A DNA stretch of 64,000 bases from a candidate division CPR3 bacterium GWF2_35_18 (GTDB taxonomy: Bacteria; Patescibacteriota; CPR3; GWF2-35-18): assembly GCA_001771135.1 (NCBI GenBank), contig MESW01000009.1:23436-87435 (forward strand), in the 5' to 3' direction. The position numbers and the translations under genes were made by a program. Positions within the stretch are counted from its first letter, which is position 1. Every line of letters begins with the position of its first letter. This document shows, piece after piece, positions 3,035 through 43,100 of the stretch. Under the pieces are notes generated by a model. The model was given only the letters and a program-made list of their open reading frames with translations, did no database searches and was not told the origin of the DNA.

Positions 3035-3532
3035 TTAATTTTTCTCAAGGGTAAATTCTACCATATGATTTCCATGATCATAAATGGCTTTATAGGAAAT
3101 CACGTTTTTCTTGTCTCCAAATATATGATCCAAAATTTCCGAACTAAATTCGGCTAGCAGATTTGGAAGTTTTTTAATTTCGTCTACTGTGAGCCATCTT
3201 AACTCTCCGTCAGGAGAATCAATAACTTCGCCATTCTTAAAATCTGCAACTATCATGTGGAAAAATACTTCTGTACCGATATCCTGCAACCAACCCACTC
3301 CCGTAGCTCTAATTTTCAAATTTTTAATTTTCAGTCCGGTTTCTTCCATCACTTCTCGATGCGCGGCTTCAAAAAGACCCTCTCCTTGTTCTCTTTTCCC
3401 ACCTGGAGCCATCCAGACATTCGGCATAATTTTTTTATCAGAATTACGATGAAGCATCAGATATTTATCATCTTTTTTCACAAAACATTCGAATGTCGCG
3501 TGAATTTTACGATCGGACATATTTCCCTTCAA
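3035..3532 (-). CDS. NUDIX hydrolase
   Basis: Nudix box GGKREQGEGLFEAAHREVMEETGL (GX5EX7REUXEEXGU). Confidence 0.8.
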   Translation of the reverse strand: MKGNMSDRKIHATFECFVKKDDKYLMLHRNSDKKIMPNVWMAPGGKREQGEGLFEAAHREVMEETGLKIKNLKIRATGVGWLQDIGTEVFFHMIVADFKNGEVIDSPDGELRWLTVDEIKKLPNLLAEFSSEILDHIFGDKKNVISYKAIYDHGNHMVEFTLEKN

Positions 3533-3540
3533 TAATAAAA

Positions 3541-5058
3541 TTAATGTTTATCTTTTCTCAAAATAAGTACAACAGCATTATCGGCATCAACTTCAATATT
3601 ATCACCATCTTTAATTATTTGAGTCGCGACTTTTGTTCCGACAATACAAGGCACACCAAATTCTCGAGCTAAAATTGCTGCATGACAAGTAATCCCTCCT
3701 TCATCCGTCACAAAAGCACTTGCTTTCTCCATTGCCATTATATAATCAGGAGTTGTCATGGATGCAATAAGAATTTCCCCTTTATTGAGTTTGAATACAT
3801 CTTTATAGGTATTTAAAACCTTCGCAATTCCTCTTACTTTTCCTCTCGAAGCAGATCTCCCAATAATTTTATTATCCAATTTATCTGTATCTTTTGTTAA
3901 TATTCTCTTTATCTTCCGGATTAATAATAATGATTCATCCCCAAATAACGTTTCTACTTTTCCATTAATCCAAATAATTATAAATCCTTTTTCTCTTTTT
4001 TCAATTATTTCATTAACAGAATCATCTCTACATTTAAGATTTTTAACAATCTCAATCGATGATAACATTGTAATATCGTTAAGATTTAAATCAAGTCGAT
4101 TACTAATCTCTTTAAATAAAATACTTCTTCCGATAAAGAACAAATAATCAGAAACTTCTGTAGTATGGGTTCTTAAAAAAATAAAGGATCTTACTGCTTC
4201 AATCAGACTCAATGTTTCGCTATTAAAATGATGTCGTCTAATGATCGCTTCATAATCTTTTTGCTTTTGTTTCCTTATCGAATTAATTCTAGAGATTTCT
4301 TTCTCAGAATCTTTTTGAATCATCAATCTTAATCTATCAAGATAATCTTTTTTAGTAAACGTTAAGAAATTATAAAATAAAGAACCTTTTAACCAAGAAT
4401 ATTTTTTAATATGATTTTGAATTCTATCATTTATATCTTCTGGTAATTTTGATAAATTTATTTTCTTATCTTTTATTTCAGTCGCAATTTCTAATAGATG
4501 TAAAGGTTCATCAACGTATGATAATTCTCCCAATTCTGGATATGTAGCAATTTCCGAGAAGATAGCTTCTATTTCACTGTCTTCAAAATGATATTTATTT
4601 CTTAGATCTGCTTTTAATTGAATTTCTAAATAATTATCCGGCCTCGTCCAAGCAGGAATGAAAGATTCAATATAGTGATTCACAAAATCTTCAAAAATTG
4701 AAATTAATTCGTTATTGTTCAGATTATCTAATTTTGTTCTTTTCAATTCTTCTGTATATTTTATAGTTCGTGATGTAATATCAAAAAGTTTTTGAGAAAA
4801 TTTATTAAAAAAGTCATTATCATCATTAAATTTTGAATCCCAAAAAGAGTACCAATTTTCAAATTCATTTTGAGAATAATACTCTTCCCCATTAAGAATC
4901 AGATAATTTTTATATGGATTTGCAAATCCTAAATATTTTTGCTGCTCGTTTCTTGAATTTGCGAGAATCTGAATATTTTCCACAAACCAATTAAATTTTC
5001 GGCAGACATCAAATACCCATTGAATCTCTTTAACTTGAGAAATTAAGTTAGAATTCAT
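3541..5058 (-). CDS. Protein with C-terminal PEP-utilizing-enzyme mobile (phosphohistidine swivel) domain and an uncharacterised ~400-aa N-terminal region
   Basis: C-terminus GEILIASMTTPDYIMAMEKASAFVTDEGGITCHAAILAREFGVPCIVG matches the PpsA/PPDK/rifampin-phosphotransferase swivel domain with catalytic His; no ATP-grasp (PPDK_N) or TIM-barrel motifs seen. Confidence 0.6.
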   Translation of the reverse strand: MNSNLISQVKEIQWVFDVCRKFNWFVENIQILANSRNEQQKYLGFANPYKNYLILNGEEYYSQNEFENWYSFWDSKFNDDNDFFNKFSQKLFDITSRTIKYTEELKRTKLDNLNNNELISIFEDFVNHYIESFIPAWTRPDNYLEIQLKADLRNKYHFEDSEIEAIFSEIATYPELGELSYVDEPLHLLEIATEIKDKKINLSKLPEDINDRIQNHIKKYSWLKGSLFYNFLTFTKKDYLDRLRLMIQKDSEKEISRINSIRKQKQKDYEAIIRRHHFNSETLSLIEAVRSFIFLRTHTTEVSDYLFFIGRSILFKEISNRLDLNLNDITMLSSIEIVKNLKCRDDSVNEIIEKREKGFIIIWINGKVETLFGDESLLLIRKIKRILTKDTDKLDNKIIGRSASRGKVRGIAKVLNTYKDVFKLNKGEILIASMTTPDYIMAMEKASAFVTDEGGITCHAAILAREFGVPCIVGTKVATQIIKDGDNIEVDADNAVVLILRKDKH

Positions 5059-5125
5059 ATGATCCTATTCTACTCAAAAATATATAATTGTCGAGTTTAT
5101 AATAATGGGAGATTATTTTGGAAAA

Positions 5126-8100
5126 TTAAAAACAAGCCGTAGCCGGACTATGTAACTGAACATCATTTGTCCCATCACAATAACACATGTAATTACCAGT
5201 ATCGTTATAAAAAATCGTTCCTTCAGGGTAACCAGATCCACAAGGATCCGCAGTCACAGAAATTGGTTTTATCCCACCGTTTACTTCTAACTTCGTTTCA
5301 GGATTTGTCGTTCCGATACCGACGTTACCATTTGCTGAGATCATAAAATAATCATTTGTCCCAAACCCCGAAGACATTGAAATTTTGAAACTTCTATCTG
5401 TTATATCTCCTCCCATTACCCAATTAGTACCTGTTGATGGAGTATAATAAATAGTAATTCTTACGTGATCTATATATGCAGTTCTGTTTCCACCTCCGTC
5501 ATCTCTGGCTCTAATGGCTACACCAAAGGTTGAGTTATTAACTTGAGTGGCGGTAAGTCCTACCACACCCCATAAGTTACTACTGCCACCATATCCTGTA
5601 TAATCGTTGGGATCAGTAATTCCCCACTCCAAATCGGTTTGTAGATCGTTTCCAGAATAAACGTCATCAACTACAAGCATCACGGACTGATCAGTCACAC
5701 CACTACCTGAAGCATACCTTTCAAATTCTACGTATACTCCGTTTATAGTAGCATCAGCGGGAATAGTAAATCCAAAATCAGTTATTTTTAAATATTCAGT
5801 CGTATAACCGGTAGGCATTGTAGAAGATGTATATACATTATTACTTGAATATACATTTTGAGGATTAGACCAATCAGTCTGATTAGAAGCAGGAATTGAT
5901 TGTGCTAATGCTGGAGAATTGGCATCAGATGGCGAGACGGACGCCGGAGCATCTAGGAATACGATAGGATCGTATCCTGCTGCCACTATATGTAGAGGTT
6001 GGGATGGAGATGATGTCCCTAATCCTACATAACCACCATCTTCAATAAAAAGACCTAAATTCCCTCCATCATCAAATATTTGTAAACCAGATGCTGAGGA
6101 TGCTCTTAAAGTAGAAACATCAACATCATCTTCTAATGAAAATTCAGCAACATTAAGATCGAGATCATCACCGGCTGTATAACTGCTTCCTCCATCTAAC
6201 GCCGTCCACTCTTCGGCTGAATTTTTATACTCAATAGTTCCAGCATTGTCTCTAATACCATAACCAGATTCACCATCTGTAGAGCCAAAATTAAGATACC
6301 CACCTGCACTTACACCAACATTTCCAACAACGTCTAATTTATGATTTGGACTTGTAGTACCGATCCCAACGGCGCCAGTACTAGTAACAACAAAGTTATT
6401 ATTGACATCAAACAATTGTGAAGGATTGATATTGCCTACACCAAGTTTACCTGTATAGTCTAGTATCATTCTCTTTGTTATTGCACTGGATTGTGTTGTA
6501 TAAAAAACCATATTTGTTTCCGCCGGTCCCATGAGATTGCTCTCTATTCTTGATGTGACAGTTGTTCCCCATCCAAAATCTATTTGGGTTTTGTCAGCTC
6601 CTGCGTATCGAGAGCCCGTAAGCGCTAATTTTGATGTTTCTGATGATCCCGTAAAGGAGGCTAATGTATTTACTGATGAAATTACTGTGAGGGGATAACT
6701 AGGTGCTGTTGCTCCTATTCCAACATTTCCTTGTACAATAAGACTATCCGCTGGGGCTGTTAATACATCATAATTTGACCCAATTGCAACATTTCCATCC
6801 ACTGATAATAATGAGCCAGGATTATTTGATCCAATACCTATATAACCCGCGGCGCTGATATATATGTCGTCACCCGTAGCGTTTCGTGCAAAGGCTTGTG
6901 CTGCTCCACTTTTATAAATATAGAATTGACTACCGACTACTGTTTCTTCAAGTATTAAATAAGGATTGTTAGAAACAATACCTCCTCTAAAATTACTAAT
7001 GTTTTGAGCTGTTGTTAATACATTTTGATTTACTTGTAAACCACTAGGACTAGTAGTACCAATCCCCACGTCCCCATTAAAACTAACTAAATCGTTTGCA
7101 AAGTCACCCCAAATAAGTGGCGATACCGAGTTTGAGTTTTCAATGTAGAGTTTATCTGAACCGGTTTCTGCACTTCCGGCACTTGTTCCAATAAAAACAC
7201 TTCCACTACCTAGATTGCTGTATCCCGCACCCACACCTATTGCGACATTACTCCCCCCTGAAATGTTTTGGTAAAGTGCACTGCTTCCCAGTGCGATATT
7301 ATTACTTCCTGTTTGTAATGTATACAGTGGTCTATACCCAATGCCAATGTTATCGTCGCCGCTAGTAACTGCAGATAGGGGATAACTACCTATTGCGACA
7401 TTACTCTCGCCATTTGTTACTACATTTAGAGCTTTGTGCCCAATACCAATAAGCCCGGTTCCGGTAGTAGTTGTATTTCCGGCAAGAGATCCAATGAACT
7501 GATTAGTTATATCTGTTCCTAGGTTTAGAAATAATCGCCCTGTGTTATTAACATATCCCAAAGGAGTACCGCTACTGTTCTGCCACTCTAGAATATTGGC
7601 TGTTTGAGTACCATTAGCCGTCACGATTAGTTGTTGTGTGTCTGTCGTACCTAATATATGTAGTTTTGCGGTAGGATTTGTTGTTCCTATACCCACATTA
7701 CCACTACTTGTAATTGTAAAATTGTTATTTGACAAGCCACTGTTTAATCCAAAAAATGCACTGTTATCTTTAACACCCCAATATCCTGTTGTATCATTAT
7801 CACTTATCAAAATTTGCGCCAGATCATCCGTATTATAAAAACGTGCCACACTATCAGTTGTTTCACCGTTTACATCCAATCTATAAGATGGAGGAGAACT
7901 GTAAATACCTACATTTTTGCCAACGATATTAATCGAACTATACGAATTTGTTCCAATTACAAATCTATCGTTAGCATCTACAAATAATCTCCCCACTGAT
8001 ATGGGGGTACCTGCTCTCAAGACGCTAATTCCTCTATCGTTACCTGGCGTTCCTCCGGTAATTCCTTGATCTACATATAGTTGCGAAAGTGGAGAGGTTG

Positions 8101-10231
8101 TTCCAATACCCACATTCCCATCTTTATCTAAAACCATTTTCGTAGACACCGCAGCAGTACCGCTCGCTGTCCCAAATTCTAATCTTCCATAAGGATGTAC
8201 GGCATCAAAATCACTCTGTGCTATAACTCTTGCATATCCAGCCACATTCGAACCTGTTAATGATGTATCGTTAGAATAAAAATCTAATTCTCCTATCATT
8301 TGACCAATTCCGACGCCAGTATCAGTACGTTGAAGAGTCAAAATTGGAGATGAGCTACCTACATGCAGAATTGAAACAGCATTTTCAATACCAATACCAA
8401 AATTTCCACCACTTTCTATAATTGCTTTCTGTGCACTTCCAATAGTTGTCCCAGTACCAAAAACTAGATTACCATTTGAAGCATAATAACTTAAATAATA
8501 ATTTTGAGCTTCTCCATCAAAAATTATTCCAGTATCCTCTGCCCCATTGTCACCCAAAGTCAGGAATGGAGTCGTTCCTCCTATTTGAAGCTCTGTAGAA
8601 GGATTTGTTGTTCCGATCCCCACATTACCAGCAAAATATGAATTTGATGTTGCTGCAGAATAAATTGCATAACGATTCGTTCCAATATCAATAGAAGAAT
8701 GTAAATATATACCATACGAATTATCTACTGTTCCCCCATTTGAATAACCGTTAAGCAGTACTCCATACGCATTATTTATCGTTCCGCTAGAGTTTCCAAT
8801 CGATCCACGTAATAACGCTGCTTCTGCAATTGTTCCTCCACCAGAATTATTCATTTGCGCCCTATAATTATATGCTGAAGCTACATAACCAGATCCATAA
8901 TTGCTAAACATAGAGCTATTACCATATCCAACCGTTGCAATATTTCCATAATTAAACACCCCTGATGATAATCCATACATCCAATTTACGGTTCCATCAT
9001 TGGTATTTATTGATCTACTTGATATTCCAGTCATTCCATGTTGCGTATCTGTACCTGTAAATTCATTCACAAGTTGCAAACCTGTAACATAAGGAAAGCC
9101 AACCGTATCTCCCTCTGTTACGTTAGTATGTAAATAACTGGAATAACTTGATATATTACCATTTGTTATTCTCTCTAAATGAAACAATGATGTAGGGTTC
9201 GTCGTTCCAATCCCCACATTGTAACTTGTATCATCAGGATAAAGATTTGATCCCGAAAGTGTCCAAGGTCCTCCAGTCGAAGAGACATCTGTCCAGGAAG
9301 CCACTCCAGATCCATCGGTAGTTAAAACATATCCACTAGAAGCTCCTGACGCCATAGTAAGTGCTGTGATATCTACACTCCCTCCAGAAAGAGATCCTGT
9401 AACATTCCCGGTTAAGTTCCCGGAAAAAGAGGTCGCGGTAATACTTCCCCCATTGGTAAGATCATTGGTTCCGAGATTAATATCTCCACTCATCGTTCCT
9501 CCAGAAAGAGGTAGATAGTTGGAAGCAGTAATTGTGTTAGGAATCATATTATCCGTTAAAGAGTTATTAGGAAATTTGATAGTCCCAAATACTGTCAGAT
9601 TTGTGGTAGAGAGTGTTCGAATATTGGTAATATTATGATCGTTAAGTTTCACATTACCATTAATTGTCCCTCCAATTACAGGAAAGTATTTTGAAGCCGT
9701 AATGCTATTGGGAATCATGGCGTCGGTAATAGAGTTATTAGGTAAAGTCACTATTCCTAAAGTAGTCAGGTTGTTCACAGTAAGAGAAGGGTTGCCAGAT
9801 AATCCGGTAGCATTTCCAATCAGAGACCCTGTTACGGTTCCTTCTACATCTCCAGTAAGGTTACCTTCAAACTCTCCCTGAAAAAGATCGGCGATTAAAC
9901 TTCCCCAGACCTCTAGGTCTGTGGTTACAAATACCCTTTCTCTTGATTCCAGGAAGAGGTAATCATCTGTTACAATATGCATGTGCACATCATCATAGAT
10001 CTTTGACCCCCCTTGATTCAGATTGAAAGACATATACTTACCTTGATTGAAGGTCTCTGATCCCAGAGTAACCTCTGTTCCGGAGATATTAAGGTCTCCA
10101 ATAATGGATAGCTCTTCCGTAATTGTATAAGCATTTGTGATAAGTGGATTAATTAATACAAAGAAGGTGAAAAAGAATACCAAACTTATAATTGATAGAA
10201 ATAATAGTTGCTTTTGAGACAGTGTAAACAT
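5126..10231 (-). CDS. Giant (1701 aa) secreted repeat protein with phage tail-fibre-like repeats; putative adhesin
   Basis: N-terminal signal peptide (..LINPLITNA|YT); at least 11 dispersed copies of the motif GNVGIGTT(N/S)Pxx(K)L(H/E/D)V; N-terminal tandem repeats containing PLSGGTMSG and LTGNVTGSLSGG, typical of tail-fibre/beta-helix proteins. Confidence 0.7.
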   Translation of the reverse strand: MFTLSQKQLLFLSIISLVFFFTFFVLINPLITNAYTITEELSIIGDLNISGTEVTLGSETFNQGKYMSFNLNQGGSKIYDDVHMHIVTDDYLFLESRERVFVTTDLEVWGSLIADLFQGEFEGNLTGDVEGTVTGSLIGNATGLSGNPSLTVNNLTTLGIVTLPNNSITDAMIPNSITASKYFPVIGGTINGNVKLNDHNITNIRTLSTTNLTVFGTIKFPNNSLTDNMIPNTITASNYLPLSGGTMSGDINLGTNDLTNGGSITATSFSGNLTGNVTGSLSGGSVDITALTMASGASSGYVLTTDGSGVASWTDVSSTGGPWTLSGSNLYPDDTSYNVGIGTTNPTSLFHLERITNGNISSYSSYLHTNVTEGDTVGFPYVTGLQLVNEFTGTDTQHGMTGISSRSINTNDGTVNWMYGLSSGVFNYGNIATVGYGNSSMFSNYGSGYVASAYNYRAQMNNSGGGTIAEAALLRGSIGNSSGTINNAYGVLLNGYSNGGTVDNSYGIYLHSSIDIGTNRYAIYSAATSNSYFAGNVGIGTTNPSTELQIGGTTPFLTLGDNGAEDTGIIFDGEAQNYYLSYYASNGNLVFGTGTTIGSAQKAIIESGGNFGIGIENAVSILHVGSSSPILTLQRTDTGVGIGQMIGELDFYSNDTSLTGSNVAGYARVIAQSDFDAVHPYGRLEFGTASGTAAVSTKMVLDKDGNVGIGTTSPLSQLYVDQGITGGTPGNDRGISVLRAGTPISVGRLFVDANDRFVIGTNSYSSINIVGKNVGIYSSPPSYRLDVNGETTDSVARFYNTDDLAQILISDNDTTGYWGVKDNSAFFGLNSGLSNNNFTITSSGNVGIGTTNPTAKLHILGTTDTQQLIVTANGTQTANILEWQNSSGTPLGYVNNTGRLFLNLGTDITNQFIGSLAGNTTTTGTGLIGIGHKALNVVTNGESNVAIGSYPLSAVTSGDDNIGIGYRPLYTLQTGSNNIALGSSALYQNISGGSNVAIGVGAGYSNLGSGSVFIGTSAGSAETGSDKLYIENSNSVSPLIWGDFANDLVSFNGDVGIGTTSPSGLQVNQNVLTTAQNISNFRGGIVSNNPYLILEETVVGSQFYIYKSGAAQAFARNATGDDIYISAAGYIGIGSNNPGSLLSVDGNVAIGSNYDVLTAPADSLIVQGNVGIGATAPSYPLTVISSVNTLASFTGSSETSKLALTGSRYAGADKTQIDFGWGTTVTSRIESNLMGPAETNMVFYTTQSSAITKRMILDYTGKLGVGNINPSQLFDVNNNFVVTSTGAVGIGTTSPNHKLDVVGNVGVSAGGYLNFGSTDGESGYGIRDNAGTIEYKNSAEEWTALDGGSSYTAGDDLDLNVAEFSLEDDVDVSTLRASSASGLQIFDDGGNLGLFIEDGGYVGLGTSSPSQPLHIVAAGYDPIVFLDAPASVSPSDANSPALAQSIPASNQTDWSNPQNVYSSNNVYTSSTMPTGYTTEYLKITDFGFTIPADATINGVYVEFERYASGSGVTDQSVMLVVDDVYSGNDLQTDLEWGITDPNDYTGYGGSSNLWGVVGLTATQVNNSTFGVAIRARDDGGGNRTAYIDHVRITIYYTPSTGTNWVMGGDITDRSFKISMSSGFGTNDYFMISANGNVGIGTTNPETKLEVNGGIKPISVTADPCGSGYPEGTIFYNDTGNYMCYCDGTNDVQLHSPATACF

Positions 10232-16850: not shown

Positions 16851-17651
16851 ATGTCCTTGAAATTAAATTGGATTGAAAAAAATAGATCTGCCGAAATCGT
16901 CATCGTCTTTGTGATTTTCATTTCTATAACCGCTGTACTTTTTATTTACTTGAATCCTCAAGAAATTATCAAACAGGTTCGTGACGCCAAAAGACTGGAC
17001 GACATGAACAAAATAAGAAGCGCTTTGGACCATTACAAAGCTGAACACAACTGGACCTATCCAAATAATATATTCCTACTGACAGACTATATCTCTCCTA
17101 TACCCACCGATCCTTTAACTCACAAATATTATGGTTATGTTGTAAACAGTTTGAACACCCTATACGAACTGAACTGCAATTTGGAAAGTATCAAAAAATT
17201 ACCTCTAGAAAAAACCGACAACGGAGACAACGATAATCTTTATGAAATTGGAACAGACCTCACTCTGATGAAACAAGGACTCTATAACAATCTTGGAGTC
17301 AATCCTCCTCCAAATGTTTTCGAACTAATTTCTCCAAAAGAAACAGACACAATTAGTATTAAAGAAACCGATAAAGGCTGTTTATTCAATACCACCCTGT
17401 CTTGGCAAGAAGCGATAGATCCAGGAGATACAAATAGCTATTTCTATTACATTGATAATAACCCTGATTTTAGCAGCCCCGAAATTGTCGGAAAGACTTC
17501 AAATACCACAATCGCTTTGACTGAATATTTCAAAAACGTTAATTGTGCGGAAGTGGAAGACAAAATGTATCTAATTCTGGTAGCTCAAGACAGTGGAGGA
17601 AATTTAACAGACACAAATCCGATAATCATCAAAACTACACTTTCTCAATGA
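16851..17651 (+). CDS. Type IV pilin / pseudopilin-like secreted protein with non-canonical leader
   Basis: N-terminal hydrophobic helix AEIVIVFVIFISITAVLFIYL followed by the pilin-like segment QVRDAKRLDDMNKIRSALDHYKAEHNWTYP; lacks the canonical G|FTLIE cleavage motif. Confidence 0.5.
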   Translation: MSLKLNWIEKNRSAEIVIVFVIFISITAVLFIYLNPQEIIKQVRDAKRLDDMNKIRSALDHYKAEHNWTYPNNIFLLTDYISPIPTDPLTHKYYGYVVNSLNTLYELNCNLESIKKLPLEKTDNGDNDNLYEIGTDLTLMKQGLYNNLGVNPPPNVFELISPKETDTISIKETDKGCLFNTTLSWQEAIDPGDTNSYFYYIDNNPDFSSPEIVGKTSNTTIALTEYFKNVNCAEVEDKMYLILVAQDSGGNLTDTNPIIIKTTLSQ

Positions 17652-18201
17652 TCCTTTGGAGGTTCGGAATTCTAAACTCTTTTTTAAAATTATATAAACG
17701 AGTCAAAGGACCTTTTCCAAATTTTTGATACTGTTGCTCTCTTTTTTCAAAAGTTACGAACCCTTTATCTTTACTGTGAAATTTATCTGCGTAACAAAGG
17801 ATTTTTTCCTCAAGGGTCTCGGGAATAAAATCTAAATGAGGTAAAGGATAATTATGATCTTCAATTTCTTTTTTAGAAATTCCTAAGCCAATATGACGTT
17901 CTACCATTCTAATAATAGCTTCAGAAAATCCTTCGGCTCGTAGGATCATCGCGCCTAGAAAAGCATGTTGAATATATGGCTTAACAACACGTGGACCGTA
18001 AACCTTTTCACATTCAAAAACTCCAATATCATGAAGTAATATTCCTTTTTCCGCAATATCCCAGTTTAGAGACAGCTTGTTTTCAGACACAATCTGTTTG
18101 GCAATTTGTAAAGTAATTGTTGTATGAAGAAAAACATCTTCTGCTCCTTTTTGAGTCGGAGAATATTTTTGAAACAGCTTAAAAAATTCCTTCATCACCA
18201 A
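17635..18201 (-). CDS. HD-domain phosphohydrolase
   Basis: HD motif ILLHDIGVFE with upstream His (FLHTTITLQ) and downstream RHIGLG, CYADKFHSKD. Confidence 0.7.
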   Translation of the reverse strand: MVMKEFFKLFQKYSPTQKGAEDVFLHTTITLQIAKQIVSENKLSLNWDIAEKGILLHDIGVFECEKVYGPRVVKPYIQHAFLGAMILRAEGFSEAIIRMVERHIGLGISKKEIEDHNYPLPHLDFIPETLEEKILCYADKFHSKDKGFVTFEKREQQYQKFGKGPLTRLYNFKKEFRIPNLQRIIEKV

Positions 18202-18961
18202 AAATTCCTTTCATTAAAGATATCGAAATATAACCTTTATTCAAAGCTCCGGTATCCAGTTTTTCATCTAGCTCTCGTTCTATTTTAGAAGCATAAACTT
18301 CTTTATTATAAATAAAGGTGTGCGTTTTATGATCAATTATGACTGGATAATGCCAGTATTTGGTGCTATTACCACTCACTTTTGTAAACTTTACCTGAGT
18401 CGTTGCTTCATGGGGAAAATTTACATTTATTAATTTCGCTTCGTATAAATTCTTGGCAATACAATCATCAATAACTTTAGAGGCCATTTCTCCTGGATAT
18501 TTTAGAAATTCTTGAAAACCATCTTCCAAACTGTGATTTCGAAGCCAATCATTACTATTATTTCTTTTATAGCTCAAACAGATAGCCTTCTCTGATAACT
18601 GAACACTAAGACCCCGGATTGCCGCCGCAACTGTTCCCGAAGAGATATTGGCATAAGCAATATTTTCCCCCCAATTAATTCCCGAGATAATAAGATCAAA
18701 CTTATTCTTGAAATAGCCTTGAGCAAATTCCATCGTGTCTGCGGGAGTTCCGTCTACCCAAAATGCCTTTACCCCTTCAACGACTTCCTCTCCCCAAGAA
18801 TGAGAGGCAAGAAAAGTTAATTTTCCTCCTACTCCAGATTGTTGGGTTTTGGTAGCGGCAATAATCAAGTTGTATTTATCTTTAAGTAAACGAGCTAAAA
18901 CTCTCGTACCCAGAGAGTTATACCCATCATCGCCGGTAAGCAAAATATTCTTAACTTCCAT
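18179..18961 (-). CDS. surE: 5'/3'-nucleotidase SurE
   Basis: N-terminal ILLTGDDGYNSLG; SurE core ISGINWGENIAYANISSGTVAAAIRG; 23-nt overlap with the downstream HD gene. Confidence 0.8.
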   Translation of the reverse strand: MEVKNILLTGDDGYNSLGTRVLARLLKDKYNLIIAATKTQQSGVGGKLTFLASHSWGEEVVEGVKAFWVDGTPADTMEFAQGYFKNKFDLIISGINWGENIAYANISSGTVAAAIRGLSVQLSEKAICLSYKRNNSNDWLRNHSLEDGFQEFLKYPGEMASKVIDDCIAKNLYEAKLINVNFPHEATTQVKFTKVSGNSTKYWHYPVIIDHKTHTFIYNKEVYASKIERELDEKLDTGALNKGYISISLMKGIFGDEGIF

Positions 18962-18964
18962 AGT

Positions 18965-19405
18965 TTATCTTTCTAAAACCTTTATATCTGTAACGGTTTT
19001 AATTTTGCCTAAATATATTGGTAAAACTTTTTGATGTCCCACAAAAAAAGGTTCTGGCAATTCATCTTTAGAAAACCAATTCCAACCTTCACAACAATCT
19101 GGTTCAGCATTTGCAATTTCACCTTTCCAACTTTTTATAATGTAAACAAAACGGACATAATGCTCCTCCTGATGATTCGGAGTATCGTTAACGACTGCAA
19201 ACAAATCGATCTCATTTGCTTTAACACCAGTTTCTTCGAACAGCTCCCGTTTTGCACAGTCTAGAGTAGATTCTCCAACTTCAAGGTGTCCTCCGGGAAA
19301 AGCCCATTGCCCAGCCCCAAAAATATTCTTACGCTTTCCCAGTAGTACTTTTCCTCCTTTTTCCAGGATCATTTCACAAGAAACTTTGACTATTTTTTCT
19401 TTCAT
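18965..19405 (-). CDS. NUDIX hydrolase
   Basis: Nudix box GGHLEVGESTLDCAKRELFEETGV; 4-nt ATGA overlap with the upstream gene. Confidence 0.8.
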   Translation of the reverse strand: MKEKIVKVSCEMILEKGGKVLLGKRKNIFGAGQWAFPGGHLEVGESTLDCAKRELFEETGVKANEIDLFAVVNDTPNHQEEHYVRFVYIIKSWKGEIANAEPDCCEGWNWFSKDELPEPFFVGHQKVLPIYLGKIKTVTDIKVLER

Positions 19406-19902
19406 TTTTCTCCTAGGTAATGACCAATATATGGTAATGAAAACTTCCGTTTCAGATATTTTTTGTAGAGATTAATTGCATTTGCATGATCAAAACCAAT
19501 TTGGGAATTTTCCGGTAGATTATTAAAATCAAACCAAAGGACTTCCGAAATCTCTCGATCATGATCCCCAGTTTTTTCTTCTACATCTACCACATAAAAA
19601 AAGCTGATATTTTGATTATCTTCGACGTTTGTTCTTTTTGGATCATCATTGATTTGAAGTAAAAACTTAATTTTTCCAAGATAACCTGTTTCTTCTTTTA
19701 ATTCTCGTAATACCGCCTCACTGACAACTTCATCTCGATCAATATAACCACCCGGTAACGCGTATTTTCCTGGTTCAAAAAAAGCAGTATTTGATCGTTT
19801 TACCATCAAAATTTTATTGTCTTTAATTACAATAGCATCACAGGTTACATGACGCAATTTGGCTGGATTTCCATTGGGAAATTTACAAGTAATCATATTC
19901 AA
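19402..19902 (-). CDS. NUDIX hydrolase
   Basis: Nudix box GGYIDRDEVVSEAVLRELKEETGY. Confidence 0.8.
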   Translation of the reverse strand: MNMITCKFPNGNPAKLRHVTCDAIVIKDNKILMVKRSNTAFFEPGKYALPGGYIDRDEVVSEAVLRELKEETGYLGKIKFLLQINDDPKRTNVEDNQNISFFYVVDVEEKTGDHDREISEVLWFDFNNLPENSQIGFDHANAINLYKKYLKRKFSLPYIGHYLGEK

Positions 19903-21161
19903 ACTCTTAAATCTTTAATAACGTTAACTAAAACTTTTATTCCTTTATCCAAAACTTCTTTCTCAATTGTGAGTGGTGGCATAAGCTGAATCACACTTTC
20001 ATGATCACAGACCAAGTGCAAACCTTTTTTCCAAGCATGCAAAACAATCTTTTCGGTTAACTCCGGATATTTTTGCTTAGTTTTTTTATCTTTCACAAAA
20101 TCGAGACCCAAAATCATTCCCATTCCCCGAATATCCCCAACATTTGGATGATCTTGTAAATGTTTTTTCAACTCACCCATCATGTAGTGACCTGTTTTCT
20201 GTACTCTTTCCCAAATTTTTTCCTTCTCATGGATTTTCAAAGTTTCGAGAGCCGCGGCGCAAGAAATTGGTAACCAACCAAAAGTAGATTGTAAGTTAGC
20301 GGGATCAGCTACTTCCGCGATTTTTTCCTTGGTCACCATTGCTCCAATTGGAGCGACTCCGTTACTCATTCCTTTAGCAAAAGTTACGATATCGGGAACG
20401 ATATTTTCGTGCTTCATACCAAACAATTTTCCCGTCCGGCTGAAACCAGTTCCGACTTCATCGAGGATAAGAAGTGTTCCATATTTTTCCGTCAATCTCC
20501 GAACAACGGTTAAAAATCCAGTAGGAGCCACATAGGCTGAACCCCAACCGGAAATTATCCCGGATTCCGCGAAAACCGCCGCCACATCTTCATTTTCTAA
20601 AACTGCTTCTAATCTTTTTTCAAAATCGTGAAGAACTTCAGTTTCGTTCAAATCGGTTCTATAAATATTGGGATATTCCAAATGGATGTAATCTGAATTG
20701 TCTGAAGATATGCTTGTTAACCACTCTTTCCTATAACCTACCTCTAACATGGATAAATTGTTTCCATGATAAGTTTCATAGAATCCTAAGATTTTTTTTC
20801 GCCCAGTGTAAGCTCGGGCCAGTTTCATGGCATGTTCATTTGCTTCAACCCCACCAGTTACTCTACTACAAGAATCTAACTCTTTTGGTAAAACGTGATG
20901 TAAGGCTGAAGCATATTTTTCTTGGAGATCATCACAAAACCACATTGAGGCGTAAGTATTTTTCATCACCTGACTAGAAACTGCTTCCGCAATTTCGGGA
21001 CGATTCCAACCCAAATTTGTCACATTCCAACCTGAAGTAAAATCAATATATTGCTTCCCTTTATCGTCCCAGAGATAACTACCACAAGCGTCTTTTATTT
21101 TAAATCGCCATGCTGAAAATTTTGTGTAAATAATATGTCGATGTACCATAATTACCTCCAT
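19899..21161 (-). CDS. Class III PLP-dependent aminotransferase
   Basis: LILDEVGTGFSRTGKLFG motif and TFAKGMSNG (PLP lysine); 420 aa. Confidence 0.85.
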   Translation of the reverse strand: MEVIMVHRHIIYTKFSAWRFKIKDACGSYLWDDKGKQYIDFTSGWNVTNLGWNRPEIAEAVSSQVMKNTYASMWFCDDLQEKYASALHHVLPKELDSCSRVTGGVEANEHAMKLARAYTGRKKILGFYETYHGNNLSMLEVGYRKEWLTSISSDNSDYIHLEYPNIYRTDLNETEVLHDFEKRLEAVLENEDVAAVFAESGIISGWGSAYVAPTGFLTVVRRLTEKYGTLLILDEVGTGFSRTGKLFGMKHENIVPDIVTFAKGMSNGVAPIGAMVTKEKIAEVADPANLQSTFGWLPISCAAALETLKIHEKEKIWERVQKTGHYMMGELKKHLQDHPNVGDIRGMGMILGLDFVKDKKTKQKYPELTEKIVLHAWKKGLHLVCDHESVIQLMPPLTIEKEVLDKGIKVLVNVIKDLRV

Positions 21162-21815
21162 TTAATTGTAGATAGATTGAGTTTCAAACGGTAAAAAGTA
21201 TACCTTAAATAGTTGCCAGAGTCTAACAAAACGACAAACAGAAAAGCTACTTCCAGTTCTATCACCAAAAATGGAAAAAAACACTGTTTGCAATCCACCG
21301 AAAGGATATTCCGAAAAAGCAGCTAAATTGGCTTGAAATTCTTGATTTCCTTCTTCCATATTTCCTTCCTGCATCATATGTTCGAATTCATGACGTTTAA
21401 CAAAAAGCTTTGCAGAAACAGGTAAATCCTCTCGGACATATCCAAAATCTCCACAAGAAATTCCATTTAAACCTGGCATCTCCTCTTTCGAAACTTCAAT
21501 CATAAAATAATCTGAGGCTTGACGATACTCTTCTTTGGAAATTTTGAGACCTTCTTTTCTCTTTTGTCTCAACGATTCTAACCAATTTCGATCCTCCTCA
21601 TTAAAAAAAGAATCAAAGGTATAGCCTCCCTCCCAATCTCCGTTTTCTAAAAGAGTAAACGTATAACAATCAGGATGTTTGGGAAAAGCAATTTTAGGAC
21701 ACTGATAATATCGACTAAGAAACTCGAAACTAATTATGCTTATTATAATAAAAACAAGAGAAAAAATAACAAAATATTTTAAAAATTTTAGGAACTTTTG
21801 TTTTTTATTGAGCAT
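21162..21815 (-). CDS. Membrane-anchored protein with HExxH motif (putative zinc metallopeptidase)
   Basis: N-terminal TM; RHEFEHMMQE (HExxH); directly abuts the aminotransferase gene (start 21161 / stop 21162). Confidence 0.45.
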   Translation of the reverse strand: MLNKKQKFLKFLKYFVIFSLVFIIISIISFEFLSRYYQCPKIAFPKHPDCYTFTLLENGDWEGGYTFDSFFNEEDRNWLESLRQKRKEGLKISKEEYRQASDYFMIEVSKEEMPGLNGISCGDFGYVREDLPVSAKLFVKRHEFEHMMQEGNMEEGNQEFQANLAAFSEYPFGGLQTVFFSIFGDRTGSSFSVCRFVRLWQLFKVYFLPFETQSIYN

Positions 21816-21844
21816 TTTCTTTTACATTAAATAAAAATATCAAC

Positions 21845-22396
21845 TTAGTATCTAAAACAATTCATTAGATGATCATTCACCATCCCTGCCGCCTGCATAA
21901 AAGCGTAACAAATAGTCGGACCAACAAAACGAAAACCTCTCTTTTTCAGATCTTTGCTCATCGTTAACGCCTCTTTCGATTCTACCGGAATCTCTTTCAA
22001 AGTCTTCCAAGAGTTCTTAATAGTTTTCCCATTAACAAATTGCCAAATGTAAGAATCAAAACTCCCAAACTCTTTTTGTACTTGTAAAAAAGCCTGTGCA
22101 TTAGAAATAGTCGCGCTGATCTTTAAACGATTGCGAATAATTCCAGCATCACATAACAAACTTTCAATTTTTTCTTGCTTATACATAGCAATTTTTTTGG
22201 CGTTAAAGTTGTCAAAAGCACGCCGAAAATTTTCTCTCTTATTAATAATAATTTCCCAAGAAAGTCCGGCCTGAAAAGCATCAAGGATCAAAAACTCAAA
22301 AAGATTGTGATCATCATGAAGAGGAACTCCCCATTCTTTATCGTGATAAGCAATCATTAAAGGATTTTTTGAAACCCAAGGACAACGATTTTTCAT
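21845..22396 (-). CDS. tag: DNA-3-methyladenine glycosylase I
   Basis: RCPWVSKNPLMIAYHDKEWGVPLHDDHNLFEFLILDAFQAGLSWEIIINKRENFR matches the Tag family. Confidence 0.85.
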   Translation of the reverse strand: MKNRCPWVSKNPLMIAYHDKEWGVPLHDDHNLFEFLILDAFQAGLSWEIIINKRENFRRAFDNFNAKKIAMYKQEKIESLLCDAGIIRNRLKISATISNAQAFLQVQKEFGSFDSYIWQFVNGKTIKNSWKTLKEIPVESKEALTMSKDLKKRGFRFVGPTICYAFMQAAGMVNDHLMNCFRY

Positions 22397-22797
22397 AACG
22401 TCTTAATTAACTCCTTTAAGCTTTGGTTTGAAACATAATATTTGTCAGTTAAAAATTCTTTTTGAGAAACCCAACGAAATTCTTGAATCGGCTCTTTGGT
22501 AGGATTAATTGAAAAATCTACTTTATAATTTTGAGTTAAACACAAAAAAGTCGTACAAACAACTTGGTTCTGATCGGTTCTGAAAAACCACCAGATACCA
22601 AGAACTTTACCTATTTTAATTTCTAAACCAGTTTCCTCTTTGACTTCACGCTGCAAACACTCATGTGGCGTTTCTCCATATTCGATTTTTCCACCTGGAA
22701 GATCCCAAAACTCTTTATCTCCAACAACTTGTTTAATCACTAAAAATTTATCTTTGTTATGAATAATCGCTTTAACAGCAGGGAAAACTTGAGACAT
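22393..22797 (-). CDS. NUDIX hydrolase
   Basis: Nudix box GGKIEYGETPHECLQREVKEETGLEI; 4-nt overlap with tag. Confidence 0.8.
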   Translation of the reverse strand: MSQVFPAVKAIIHNKDKFLVIKQVVGDKEFWDLPGGKIEYGETPHECLQREVKEETGLEIKIGKVLGIWWFFRTDQNQVVCTTFLCLTQNYKVDFSINPTKEPIQEFRWVSQKEFLTDKYYVSNQSLKELIKTL

Positions 22798-37174: not shown

Positions 37175-40100
37175 TTATTCTCCAAATAACCATCCAAAAG
37201 AACGACGCAAAGATTCAAGGACTAACTCTAATATATTCTCTGCTGGTTCATCCGTAACTACGATATTATTATCAGAAATCGTTAGATTTCCGGCACCATC
37301 TTCGGAAAGAATCCGAAAATGATAACCCTGAGATGGATTCAAATCCGGAATTATTATAAGGTGAGTTGTAACTAGATTTGAATCTTCTTTAGTCTTTTGA
37401 GAATAAACAGTCTTTGAACCAATACCTTCTCCAATACCTAAATCATATTCTATTTGACTGCTTGCAAGCTCATCTGTTTCCCAACCAATAATAAGTTGCG
37501 CTGTTGCTTTTGATCCTTGTCCGATAATTCTAGTATCTATCGTAATATTTGAAATCATTGGAGGACGACTATCAATCGCAGTTGTAAAAGTAAATAGATT
37601 CGATTCTGTCTGAGATCCAAGAGAATCCCGACCATATACAATAATTTCATATGTAGTATTATCAAAAAGAGAACTGATTATTAGCTCATGATTAGTTTCC
37701 AACTTTGCCGTCGAAACTTCTTCTATTCTAGAATCGTTTCGTTTATTATAACGAATAATTCCAGTAGTAGGCACATTTGTTTGCCAAGTTACTTTAACTG
37801 TTCCCGTAGCTTTATCTTTCTGTTGTTCAAGTTCTACATTAAAAACTTTAGGATAAACCGCGGTTGTAAATAAGTGCTCTTCTCCAATCAAAGTATTTCC
37901 CTCTTCATCAATTCCTGATACTCTTAATTCATAATTACTTGCAGGAATTAATTCATCCAACCTCACTGTGTGAACAGTAATTCCGCCAACAGACATATCT
38001 TCAATAATTCTCTCCTGTCCCCCTTCAGATTTTAAATAAATCAGTGAAGTCGACGGGACCTCAGTTATCCAAGAAACGATGCAAGAACTATATTTAATAT
38101 CTGTTACTTCTAAATCGCGAATCCGAGGTAACTCACCGGTAGTAAAGGTATTATCCTCACTAAAAGAATTTTCCGTTTCATAATCAATTAAGTCAGGATC
38201 ATCTAGACTTTGAATACGATAATGATAGGTAGTTGAAGGCATTAATCCCCTAACTACAATCTCATGTTTTATAACTGGATCCCACTGTCCTTGGGTACGA
38301 GTATAAATTTCATTGGTCCCAATTTGCACAAAACTATTTGAGAGCCGATCAGTTTCCCATGTAATCGTAGCCGTCGTCGAACCAGTATTAACATGAGGAG
38401 CAATAACAATTGTCGGTGGAGTGCTATATTTACCTGTTGGTCTTCGACTCACTATTGTAGAATAAGCACTCTCTTTACCCGCATTATCTTCGGCGGTTAT
38501 CTTATATGAATAAGTAATTTCATTATCTAATCCTGAATCAAGATATCCCAAAGAAATGACCTCTGCAATCTGTTGATAATCTTCTCTCTTATTTTTACGA
38601 TAAATATTATAATGATCGATCTCTCCAAGAGCAGGAGCTATAAAACGAACTGTCAGAGCATAATCATCAAGGTCACGATTACTAGAATCTATGATAGTTA
38701 CATTTGTGGGAATTCCTGGAGCGATTGTATTAGCAGTAAAATCAACAGAAGCATAATTGTCATAGTTGAAATTTCCGGCACTATCAATCGCTAACACATA
38801 GAAAGTATTAGTACCTTGCTGTGTTGCATAAGGACCTTCTGGTAGTTCTGTATCTTCTATTTCACTTATATTATTTTCATTTGGTTCTTGATTAATAGAA
38901 TAATAATATGAACTAATAACAACGCCAATATCACTCGGAGCATTCCAAGAGAAAGAAAAACTGTTCTGATTATTTGAGCTTGGTGTTACCGTTAGATTTG
39001 TCGGAGCTGAAGGAGCGTCAGAAGTCGTAAAACTATCTTCTTCAGAATAAGCTACATTGTTATCTTCATCCTCACAGCGGATACGATAATAATAAAGGGT
39101 GTCACGTTTTAAACCCACAACTGTTACTTCATGAGCAACAGCCTCTTCTCCTTTACCTTGTTCCCAATAAGCATCATTTTGATTCTCACGATATTGCACA
39201 TATCCTTGACATTCGCGTTCCATAGTCCAACTTATAGTAGCAGATAGAATATGTGTTTCAACCGATGGCGAAATAAGTATCTCAGGTGGGGTTGTGTACC
39301 GACCGGTTGGAATATCGGATACGACAGAAGAATATGCACTTTCGGCTTGAGCATTATCTTCAGAGGTAATTCGATAATAATAAGTAACCGTATTACTTAA
39401 AGTGGTATCTAAATAACCAGTGCTTTGAGTAGTTGCTATATTAGAAAAATTAATTCCATCCGTCGAGCGATAAATATTATAATGCTCTATTCCCGACCCT
39501 ATATTAATAGGAGCTTCCCAAGTCAAAGTAAGTTGATATTTTTGAGTCTCACGATTAGAAGAATCTGTAATCTGAACATTCGTTGGGATTCCCGGAGCGC
39601 TAGTTTGAGCTTCAAAAGTTTGAGATCCGTAAGCATCAAAGTTCACATTTCCAATATTATCTTCGGCTACTATATAAAAAGTATTAATGCCTTGCTTTGT
39701 AGCAAGAGGTAAAGGTCCAATTGTTCTCGTTGCCGTTTCACTTATGGTTGTTTCGGTAGAGTTATACGCGTCTGGTTCTTCGTTAACACTGTAGTAATAT
39801 TTTGCGATTGTACCCAAATATGTTGCTGGCTCATTGAAACTCACCGTAAAACAGTTATCCAAAGAACTACAATTAGTATCTTCTATTGTATCAGCTGGAG
39901 TAATAACAATATCCAAAGGAGCAGAGGGAGCAGAAGCATTGTAATAATAGTTCACCTGGGCATAACTAGAATTTAAATTTCCGGCATTGTCTTTTGCTCG
40001 AATGTAAAAAACATTTTCTCCATTTTGATAAGAAGGAATATTGGCAATTGAAGTTACTTCCAAACATTGATCATTATAATATTGACTCTCTGAATCGGCA

Positions 40101-43100
40101 GTACCGAGTTTATAACAATATCCCCAGACCCCTGAATCTAAATCTGATCCTGACGGCCAATAAAAGTCAAAAGAATTTACAGAAGAGTAACCTACCGGAT
40201 TAACAGAAACTACAACCGGATTTATCGGTTCTGATTGATCAAAATGATAAGTCCATAAAGTTTCCGCCAGGCTTACTGAACCAGCATTATCTTTAGTTTT
40301 TATTCGTAAATAATAAATTCCGTCTTGATCTAAAGCAGTCTCTGGAGGAAGCTGAAATGAAACTTCTCCCGAAACTGGATCTTCGACAAAAGTACCAGCA
40401 ATTTCTGGATCAGCAGTTTCGTTCTCTCCAAAATATACATAATAACCATCAACACCTGATGGACCTTCCCCACTATCACTAGCTCCACCTACTTCTCCAG
40501 ATCTTGGCCAGGTAAAATAAGGACGACTACTATTAGCCCAATAATCATTTACAAAAACACGTTCTTTTGTATCATCATAAAAAGCAGAAATATCCGTAGG
40601 ATTTGTAGGAGCCAAATTATCGGGAGTGTAATTAAACCTTACTCCAGTTAAAGAAGGAGATTGGTAATTACCTGAAGAACTAGTATAAACTGCTTTAAGA
40701 AAAATAAAACGATGAGGATCAGATTGAATTTCATTACCAGAAAGAGATAAATAATCTCCCTCACTACAGGTATCGGTAATAAAATTTTTGGTACAAGTGG
40801 AAACAGCTAGACTTCCATCATTCAAAGTCTGAGTTAATGCAATATCATCACCAGTACTCCAATCGGAAACCGCAGTTAGATCAATTTGACCACTGTAATA
40901 TGTTCCCGTATCTTCATATCTACCAATAACATCCGCCTGACTATGTGTCAATAATCCCTGATAATATAAATCTGTAATCTCTGAAGCAGTTAAAGCTGAA
41001 TCAAAAACACGAAGATCGGATAATACAAAATCTCCATTGTTACTTCCATAACCTATGGTTATGCTTTGAGTGTAATCATTTCCAGACACATAGTTTCCAC
41101 TCGTTCCAACTACGTTATTTACATAAACTTTTAACATATTTCCTGTTGCTGACCAAGTTCCCACTACATGAGCCCACCTATCCTGAGTAAAACCACTACT
41201 ATTTAGTAGTGATGATGAATATGTATTATTGCTATCCAACCTTCCATAACAACCATGGACTGTTTCGTAATATAACCCCAAATTCATGTTTGTCCATGTA
41301 GGATCTGTGCCATTAACTCTCAAAATTGTAAATTTTCCTCCGTTACCATGAACCGAACAAGAAACATTCAACTTGATCCAAGCGCTAATAGATCCTTCAT
41401 TTTTATTTATATTAGTATTTGGATAAGACAGAGCAGCCGATGTTCTGGTACTTGTACTATCATGAGTCGTACCCGTCCAAGCATAACCAGTGCCGAAAGA
41501 ACCATCAGCATATGATGTCGTAAATCCTAACTGTTCTAGCTGTACTCCATCCACATAAATAGTTTTTCCTGCCATAACTTGAACTCCATAATAAAGAGAA
41601 GCATCAATGGTAGTTGTTGAGTAGGTTAACCTCCACCAACCTCCTCCCATATCTGTGTAAGTACTAGGAGTAACAATAGTGCTTCCAAAATAAAGATTCG
41701 CCACAGTTGCATCTACTGTCCCTCCGATACTCCCACTAGTTCCGTTATACACATAAGCACTGAGAGTATGAGTAGCAGTAGAATTTGGATCAATTGAGAT
41801 TGCATATTCATCTTGAAAATCTTGACCAATGAGTTTAACTGACTTACTCCCAAATTTGTAGTACGGTATAGTTGTATTTTCGCTAATAGATGAGGTGACA
41901 AAAGAAGAAAAAGTAGCATCAGCCTGTTGACCACCTGTCGAACTTGATCCCCAATATGCGGTATTGGGAACATTTGTAAAATTTGTCGGATCATCTAGCA
42001 CAACACGTTCAACACCATCAACCCATAACGACATGCGAGTTGAAGAATATCTCAATTCCATATGATAAGTTGTTCCCGCTATAATCGATCCGTATGCATT
42101 CCAGGCAACTCCATAATCGGTCCCATCGCTATCAACACTAAATATCTGCAATGAAGAATTATCACTCCAATAAATTCCAAACGAATTACTCGCATCAGCT
42201 TGAAATCGGACAACATAGCACACACCACCAAAGCTATACATTGTTCCCGCACTATGTCTTGGCGTGTATTTAAATTTCACAACCCCATTTGTAGCAGAAA
42301 GTCCTGTAATTGGTTGAGTAAGTGTATCCGCTCCATCCACTCGAAGACCAGTAGTTTCAGTGGAATTTGTTTGATTTGCCGGCGTTACTGTTAACGAGAC
42401 ATCGGTTAATGACACCACGTATGTATCATCCACATAAGCTACAATCGAACCGTTATACCACTTCATGAAGCCAAAATACGTACCCAAATAACTTGATGAG
42501 TTTTTTACTACCCGATGGTACACACTCCAATCTCCAGTTATATAGTGCGAAGGACCTGTTTGATTTACCTCTGATAAATGCTGTAGGGGTTGAGTGTATT
42601 GGTTATACATAAATCCAAAAGTATCCCCTGATTCTCTTTTCCCCCAACCTCCTTGAGCATAAAATTTTCCTCCAGAATATGAATGGTTAAAATACACCCC
42701 ATCACTTGTCTCATCACCTGTGAATTTTGCTGCACTCAAACCAGAATGCACTATCGTAGTTTCTTGCGTTACTTCACCCACTTCAGCTCCAGAATTAGAC
42801 CATCCGGTCGGCAGCCAGGGATCACCTGATCCAGATTCAAGAGAAGGATTACTAACTAGATTTGTATACACCTCTACTTGATGCCAGTAACAAGTGTCTC
42901 CTGTGGATGAATCGTTATACAATTCAATTATTTCCGAAGTATTTCCCGATGGTGCTTCCCATGTAAATAAAAGCACGTCCGGATCTGTTCGAGTTGAGGT
43001 ATTTGTTCCTGCCAAACTGGTTATCAACACTCCATTGTTATTATTCCAAACCTTAATAGTTGGCATACAGGATCCATCTGAGTGAGCAATAGCCCGAATT

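Follow-up and report, generated by a model that had tools for sequence, protein, structure and literature searches.

A probable substrate-binding and phosphohistidine subunit of a two-component rifampin phosphotransferase-type dikinase in a candidate division CPR3 bacterium

Rifampin phosphotransferase (RPH) from Listeria monocytogenes (PDB 5FBS/5FBT/5FBU, 5HV1) is a single polypeptide in which an N-terminal ATP-grasp domain precedes a helical domain for the second substrate and a swivel domain with the catalytic histidine. Its Arg666 and His825 are both essential, and Arg666 binds the transferred phosphate in the second active site, where the second half-reaction requires it (PMC4844700). In the biochemically established two-component homologs PpsAB (phenylphosphate synthase), CreHI and HpeHI, these tasks are divided between two proteins that form no stable complexes: one contains the rifampin-binding-like and swivel domains, and the other is a separate ATP-grasp protein of ~35–40 kDa (PMC12167813). 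Here, we describe a 505-residue protein encoded in a 64,000-nucleotide stretch of DNA from a tiny bacterium of groundwater, the candidate division CPR3 bacterium GWF2_35_18 (GCA_001771135.1, contig MESW01000009.1, positions 23,436–87,435), hereafter the window. The protein shares the C-terminal domain order of RPH, a helical domain followed by a swivel, and lacks the ATP-grasp; its combination of an RPH-type substrate domain with a swivel histidine matches the division of labor of PpsAB, CreHI and HpeHI. We conclude that it is probably the substrate-binding and phosphohistidine subunit of a two-component, ATP-dependent, RPH-type small-molecule dikinase whose ATP-grasp partner is encoded at an unlinked site.

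The C-terminal domain is a phosphohistidine swivel with a catalytic histidine, as an earlier reading of the same DNA without database searches (the sequence-only reading) had recognized. PF00391 (PEP-utilizers, where PEP is phosphoenolpyruvate) matches residues 425–494 at 92 bits, far over its cut-off of 23.1 (E = 1.8e-26, profile positions 2–71 of 72) and is the only Pfam match in the protein. The motif quoted in that reading, GGITCHAAILAREFGVPCIVG, is present and includes His459; the segment T451-DEGGITC-H459-AA fits the T/S-x-x-G-G-x-x-x-H-A-A swivel motif, and the histidine is invariant in the homologs. The chain stops 46 residues beyond His459. By sequence, the swivel is closest to those of PEP synthases (best matches 9dae and 8a8e), the residue at His-2, Thr457, is of the PEP synthase type, and the PEP synthase-like GGITCH contrasts with GGLMTH in RPH. 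PEP synthase, pyruvate phosphate dikinase (PPDK) and enzyme I of the phosphotransferase system (PTS) carry a homologous swivel without the helical RPH-type domain, and their second substrate site, a TIM barrel, is absent from the window protein. In line with the sequence-only reading, Pfam analysis detected neither an ATP-grasp domain of the PPDK_N type nor a PEP-binding TIM barrel in the protein or its neighbors.

Residues 1–390 are covered by no Pfam model and had been regarded as a novel, orphan region. This description does not hold, as the region is an RPH-type substrate-binding domain common to hundreds of fused and unfused proteins. We built an AlphaFold2 model of the 505-residue protein using a 44-sequence alignment (predicted local distance difference test score, pLDDT, 93.1; predicted template modeling score, pTM, 0.92). 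Foldseek comparison with the PDB returned Listeria RPH (5fbu/5fbt/5hv1; E = 5e-15 to 2e-14, TM 0.57–0.60, ~570 columns) as the sole structure matching both domains, all other matches being restricted to the swivel. In addition, the family profile aligns with RPH residues 651–866 at E = 1e-25, placing Arg296 on RPH Arg666 and His459 on RPH His825. A model of the fused relative P0019 (pLDDT 85.5) matched full-length RPH at E = 4.6e-40, and its ATP-grasp matched HpeI (9goj) and the RPH ATP domain (5hv6). Used alone as a query, the helical domain matched 436 of 1.84 billion representative clusters (129 with E ≤ 1e-10), with a mix of ~500-aa and ~700–840-aa proteins; given matches across hundreds of proteins, the region is therefore a recognizable RPH-type second-substrate domain, though one without a Pfam model. 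A diverged PPDK_N as the N-terminus was rejected: Pfam gave no match, and the model is mostly helical and fits the central domain of RPH.

The helical domain carries a set of residues that are invariant throughout the clade, namely W14, R20, E59, Y60, R139, P140, Y181, E184 and P185 in its first part and H216, W222, R242, R262, R296, T297, E301, E336 and R355 in the second. They are common to short and fused members, from bacteria of the candidate phyla radiation (CPR) to the fused forms of archaea and of Firmicutes-type metagenome-assembled genomes (MAGs). As ~20 helical-domain residues are invariant over this range, the acceptor is probably the same across the clade, and it is probably polar or anionic. 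Among 70 more distant paralogs, only E336 and R355 reach 85% conservation in the helical domain, while the swivel remains nearly invariant, as would be the case if specificity resided in the helical domain.

Among 5.8 billion proteins searched, 1578 matched the query. The best 120 are 40–48% identical to the query at 95–100% coverage (one at 91%) and fall into two length classes: proteins of ~500 aa with PF00391 only, including one from Woesebacteria, and proteins of ~806 aa with PF01326 (PPDK_N) and PF00391. Over their full length, relatives of both classes are 42–48% identical to the window protein. The ~806-aa proteins of Firmicutes-type MAGs and archaea (such as P0019 and P0007) are its closest relatives, with the same invariant helical residues and with the ATP-grasp fused N-terminally. 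In BLASTP alignments, residue 1 of the query lies opposite residues ~307–326 of the long forms (800–831 aa), and the window protein therefore corresponds to a long form minus its ATP-grasp. Three of the "short" database entries are truncated copies of long forms; the other 23 are diverse, deep-branching, mostly nearest one another, and share the same start and all invariant residues. The window protein itself forms a separate long branch. It matches, at 100% identity, KKP69329.1/OGB62562.1 from candidate division CPR3 bacterium GW2011_GWF2_35_18, labeled either "hypothetical protein" or "phosphoenolpyruvate synthase/pyruvate phosphate dikinase" (the latter name also in UniRef), and likewise a copy on a JGI metagenome contig (L021); the database relative P0001 differs at one residue. 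A genome-contig collection that does not include the CPR3 genome, scanned with the single window protein, yielded three distant loci only.

The short length is a property of the gene and does not result from a mis-called start or a frameshifted long gene, because the stop-to-stop frame contains just two codons ahead of the ATG, leaving no concealed N-terminal extension, and a 67-nt spacer separates the gene from the stop of the upstream open reading frame (ORF). The sequence-only reading had proposed a split or novel phosphotransfer enzyme. Its first term stands, in that the protein corresponds to three-domain dikinases without their N-terminal third and the window does not encode its partner; its second does not, in view of PpsAB, CreHI and HpeHI (PMC12167813).

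To place the protein among related architectures, we fetched 103 loci of relatives and scanned all six frames with two hidden Markov models (HMMs), one for the family PPDK_N domain and one for the helical and swivel domains. The module is linked to PPDK_N in several ways. N-terminal PPDK_N fusions occur among these loci, and permuted fusions in the order helical–swivel–PPDK_N, opposite to that of RPH and the ~806-aa relatives, occur in the range L041–L047 (L041 5477–7975, L042, L044, L046 and L047; 827–838 aa). Short forms lie beside a PPDK_N-only ORF of 312–335 aa in L036, L077, L082, L083, L085, L091, L099, L051 and L045. In L103, which belongs to the clade of the window protein, a short form with 43% identity to it is followed by a complete 253-aa PPDK_N ORF with overlapping stop and start (246 bits, HMM positions 6–306). 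L103, L036 and other relatives thus show gene pairing of the PpsAB/CreHI/HpeHI type. PPDK_N-containing genes are also found nearby in L030 and L028, the latter being a 1188-aa PPDK_N-containing paralog 2 kb from the short form. Sixteen distant short-form loci (~30% identical) have flanks of 5 kb or more on each side, and in 6 of these 16 a solo PPDK_N lies no farther than 10 kb away.

Several further features of these loci were observed. The L103 pair belongs to an operon-like string at 4785–7545, in which a RibD_C protein (169 aa), the short form (498 aa) and the PPDK_N protein are joined by overlapping stops and starts, and the compact 253-aa ATP-grasp lacks two segments found in ~315-aa partners. 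Giant proteins of 1173–3050 aa embed the helical and swivel domains in L038, L055, L067, L072, L089, L095 and L028 (4159–7722); some also contain PPDK_N and long unexplained extensions. Local identity to the window protein peaks at 50% in L035 (9980–11517), where the sequence is divided into abutting ORFs of 262 and 253 aa; this is a pseudogene unless a frameshift or sequencing error accounts for the break. Swivel-only ORFs of ~100 aa, which may be extra phosphocarriers, occur at L001 11515–11826 (minus strand), convergent with the short form, and at L012 7678–8004 (plus strand), overlapping and directly upstream of a fused form. In Firmicutes-type MAGs, a conserved three-gene unit (L013 6539–10424, L015 6546–10403, L019 6542–10424) comprises a 347-aa HTH_26 protein whose C-terminus weakly resembles HAD phosphatases, a 137/138-aa protein without a Pfam match and the fused 800–807-aa dikinase, often among NUDIX, Ham1, HD, HAD and NTPase genes; this operon is absent from the window. 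A 297/299-aa ORF lies directly downstream of the short forms in L005 (11570–12463) and L018 (11559–12458), in a recA–recX–rny neighborhood of Woesebacteria-like genomes; the two copies are 64% identical and show a weak DHH-family match. We considered un-annotated neighbors of short forms (the 297/299-aa ORFs and others of 342 and 236 aa) as cryptic ATP-grasps and rejected them, since they were negative with the PPDK_N HMM and the 297-aa ORF appears DHH-like.

In Patescibacterial loci, the two modules also occur in tandem arrays, in which 4–12 paralogous genes for ~480–530-aa helical and swivel proteins accompany a single ~315-aa PPDK_N-only gene (L099 2880–20364, L051 1562–21121 and L045 3–21886; also L083, L077, L085, L091, L097 and L040). 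The partner ORFs are 60–100% identical to the reference proteins listed for them, with up to 89% to those from Moranbacteria, Doudnabacteria and Patescibacteria; the 100% match is a protein on the same 953-kb contig. Across array members the swivel hardly varies, in contrast to a hypervariable helical domain. Paralogs of ~350 aa recur (L099 3862–4929, L051 11389–12423, L085 5626–6672, L045 9389–10444); in each, an unidentified N-terminal portion of ~180 aa precedes the end of the helical domain and the swivel. Full-text literature searches found no paper describing arrays of helical and swivel genes with a single ATP-grasp gene.

Patescibacteria have many stand-alone ATP-grasp partners. A profile built from the stand-alone PPDK_N ORFs scored 7999 of 8000 candidates at E ≤ 1e-10; the best 120 of its more than 8000 matches all contain PF01326 only, most of them with 310–350 aa and a few with up to ~516 aa, and all named proteins among these 120 are Patescibacterial (Moran-, Parcu-, Doudna- and Komeilibacteria, Paceibacterota). 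The stand-alone ORFs are 41–47% identical to one another and to fused domains, as identities to the first sequence of the alignment, itself a stand-alone ORF. Because the module is fused to PPDK_N in both orders, adjoins it in relatives and coexists with free partners throughout the phylum, a trans-acting ATP-grasp is the most likely donor for the CPR3 protein; its gene would then lie in the CPR3 genome outside the window.

By analogy with RPH, PpsAB and HpeHI, we infer the following reaction for the CPR3 protein and its small-molecule acceptor. The separately encoded ATP-grasp protein would bind ATP, and His459 on the mobile swivel would attack the β-phosphate, yielding AMP and a pyrophospho-histidine from which the γ-phosphate would leave as inorganic phosphate. 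The phosphohistidine swivel would then swing back onto the protein's own helical domain, where Arg296, the equivalent of RPH Arg666, would position the phosphoryl group for transfer to the bound small molecule.

Several observations weigh against this two-component assignment. The missing domain was sought in all six frames of the window, and neither tblastn with 91 N-terminal domains nor the HMM detected PPDK_N, which agrees with the statement of the sequence-only reading that the neighborhood lacks one; a profile of 121 stand-alone PPDK_N proteins gave a best E of 0.95. In the characterized two-component systems the genes are adjacent, whereas the CPR3 gene has no partner within 64 kb, and the four other close short-form loci that have flanks of 5 kb or more on each side (L001, L005, L017 and L018) likewise show no PPDK_N within 10 kb. 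RPH Glu667 and Lys670 align with T297 and T300, so these two RPH residues are not conserved, and the invariant E301 is one helical turn off. NCBIfam models for PpsA/HpeH-type proteins (PRK08296 group) match only the swivel (best NF006153, 98 versus 578 bits, residues 384–501), and no gene neighborhood among the compared loci of relatives, whose other contexts include RibD_C (L103) and MurT/GatD (L102), is conserved enough to hint at a substrate. With respect to linkage, Pfam found no ATP-grasp in the 28 of 66 window ORFs of at least 100 aa that were scanned, and a weak tblastn match at 57952–58053 was rejected as an in-window partner, as it lies in an ABC-2 permease.

These negative results leave some room for a partner-independent phosphotransferase with no dedicated ATP-grasp subunit, in which His459 would be charged by a phosphorylated metabolite, a stand-alone swivel protein, or the ATP-grasp of the cell's PEP synthase/PPDK or of a fused paralog; in a variant of this scheme, phosphate would be shuttled between a phospho-compound and the acceptor. 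HpeH alone moves phosphate from 4-phosphoacetophenone to acetovanillone (PMC12167813). The swivel-only ORFs adjoining relatives in L001 and L012 and the PPDK_N-containing paralog near the L028 short form would provide candidate donors, and the missing linkage in the window and at the four close loci also favors this explanation. However, fused, permuted and adjacent-gene relatives all pair the module with PPDK_N, and the phylum abounds in stand-alone PPDK_N proteins. Moreover, the absence of linkage is weak evidence, because 10 of the 16 distant short forms likewise have no linked partner. We therefore regard partner independence as unlikely, albeit as the best surviving competitor of the two-component assignment.

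The assigned subunit also departs from the described two-component enzymes. HpeH-, CreH- and PpsA-type subunits have ~600–650 aa compared to 505 aa in the CPR3 protein, and HpeHI, CreHI and PpsAB serve the breakdown of aromatic compounds by free-living Proteobacteria and Actinobacteria; the CPR3 bacterium, by contrast, has a reduced genome and no such pathway context. The prodigiosin ligases PigC, RedH and HapC, in which one polypeptide activates an aldehyde for condensation, follow a common three-module logic (ATP-grasp, central substrate domain, C-terminal swivel histidine) and show weak swivel matches to the window protein, which is not a member of their group (73 versus 1300 and 63 versus 1350 bits with the respective models). 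PADLOC models of anti-phage defense matched neither the window protein nor a fused relative.

A further proposal, compatible with the two-component assignment and concerning the substrate only, is that the protein is a subunit of an antibiotic- or xenobiotic-inactivating kinase, whose helical domain would bind a toxic molecule derived from the host or community for inactivation by phosphorylation. RPH is the only structural homolog of this domain, and the sole supporting literature counts rph-like genes as resistance-like in CPR genomes (PMC8651080). Against this, identity to RPH in the Foldseek structural alignment is 16%, and the RPH models score far below their cut-offs (NF041857, 67 versus 999 bits, swivel only; NF000283, 45 versus 1700). 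The invariant Arg, Glu and aromatic residues of the clade are unlike the largely hydrophobic rifampin contacts of RPH, and the window offers no resistance-gene context. The substrate almost certainly differs from that of RPH, and an antibiotic-inactivating role appears improbable.

That the gene is a decaying remnant or assembly artifact of a three-domain gene, or a phage-borne accessory gene tied to the neighboring "tail fiber", might be suspected from the fused forms among its closest relatives, the divided L035 relative and the PHROG tail-fiber matches in the upstream ORF. Yet the ORF is intact, with the same sequence in independent assemblies, at least 23 diverse deep-branching short forms share its start and all invariant residues, no PPDK_N remnant lies upstream, the gene context is housekeeping, and no relatives were found in 2.9 million viral contigs, which together render this explanation very improbable. 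The deposited name, PEP synthase/PPDK, can be set aside almost entirely: although the swivel is most similar to PEP synthases, including Thr at His-2, the protein lacks both the ATP-grasp and the PEP/pyruvate TIM barrel, so that its domain composition refutes the name, its helical domain has no counterpart in either enzyme, and the corresponding models remain below their cut-offs (NF005057, 117 versus 598; TIGR01418, 111 versus 739.75).

The window is cellular CPR3 chromosome, with an even guanine–cytosine (GC) content of ~34%, and not phage. The neighbors of the 505-aa gene encode RimO, a cyclophilin, a NUDIX hydrolase and an ABC-2 transporter, and other genes of the window encode a SpoU methylase, HD, SurE and further NUDIX proteins, an aminotransferase, a 3-methyladenine glycosylase and an Fe/Mn superoxide dismutase (SOD). 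The position of the 505-aa gene directly downstream of a giant tail-fiber-like gene, pointed out in the sequence-only reading, is correct, with both genes on the minus strand: the 1701-aa ORF contains segments of PHROG tail-fiber families (E = 1e-20 and 6.5e-17), here on a chromosomal locus. A second giant ORF of the window encodes 3040 aa (37175–46297, minus strand), and both products are probably large proteins of the CPR cell surface. All 4-kb bins show negative GC skew, the minus strand carries ~85% of the ORFs with 100 aa or more, and no tRNA, rRNA or other Rfam family reached its gathering score in the window.

Directly downstream, the NUDIX gene is probably co-transcribed with the 505-aa gene. 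Its listed start is the TTG at 3532, but the ATG at 3520, which follows GAAGGG, is more plausible. A functional link to NUDIX as a family trait was rejected, as NUDIX-box ORFs are no denser within 2 kb of family genes than at 2–10 kb from them (0.12 per 10 kb in both cases). The window contains four NUDIX genes, and nucleotide house-cleaning or salvage genes are dense at 3035–3532 and at 17635–22797 (both minus strand), the latter set comprising an HD hydrolase, a SurE 5'-nucleotidase, two overlapping NUDIX genes, a 3-methyladenine glycosylase and another NUDIX gene. Upstream of the 505-aa gene, an AGGA, a consensus match only, lies four nucleotides ahead of the ATG. Coordinates are collected in Table 1.

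Table 1. Features of the 505-aa gene and its immediate surroundings, in window coordinates.
Feature	Positions	Strand	Remarks
Complete gene, 505 aa plus TAA stop	3541–5058	minus	ATG 5058–5056, TAA 3543–3541
Mostly helical domain, aa 1–390, with small β-hairpins at aa 14–19, 52–62 and 359–372	3889–5058	minus	Homologous to RPH rifampin-binding (second-substrate) domain
Codon of Arg296, motif FLRT	4171–4173	minus	Aligns with RPH-Lm Arg666
Phosphohistidine swivel domain, aa 396–500	3559–3873	minus	Pfam PF00391 envelope aa 425–494 = nt 3577–3786
Codon of catalytic His459 in TDEGGITCHAAILARE	3682–3684	minus	Invariant in 44 clade members and 70 more distant paralogs; aligns with RPH His825
Intergenic leader: sigma-70-like site TCGACA-16-TAGAAT 5094–5067 and AGGA 5066–5063	5063–5094	minus	Consensus matches only
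Upstream 1701-aa ORF, PHROG tail-fiber-type segments, no PPDK_N sequence	5126–10231	minus	
NUDIX hydrolase gene	3035–3532	minus	Begins 8–20 nt past stop of 505-aa gene

The architecture and the proposed chemistry are of a known kind, and databases already contain the sequence. The new elements are the functional assignment and the recognition of an uncharacterized clade that is split in CPR bacteria and fused in Firmicutes-type MAGs and archaea. The assignment corrects a misleading PEP synthase/PPDK name as well as the over-reading of the gene as a novel domain beside a phage tail fiber. The clade has no characterized member, so that a single identified substrate would provide an annotation for hundreds of proteins across CPR bacteria, gut Firmicutes-type MAGs and archaea.

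A more speculative proposal, to which we give a low probability, takes one of two forms: either Patescibacteria possess a modular kinase system in which one free-standing ATP-grasp charges many helical and swivel subunits, encoded in arrays of up to 12 paralogs near the PPDK_N gene or, like the CPR3 subunit, by unlinked single genes, or the CPR3 subunit has lost its partner and uses another donor. If the former were true, modular kinases might trap scavenged host metabolites or neutralize host-made toxins by phosphorylation in ultra-reduced symbionts; the latter would imply a phosphohistidine relay not described for this enzyme class. The helical and swivel module and the free-standing ATP-grasp are widespread in Patescibacteria, which have minimal genomes and depend on hosts, and an ATP-driven kinase family with diversified binding domains is a testable lead on nutrient capture or resistance to host chemistry in these organisms.

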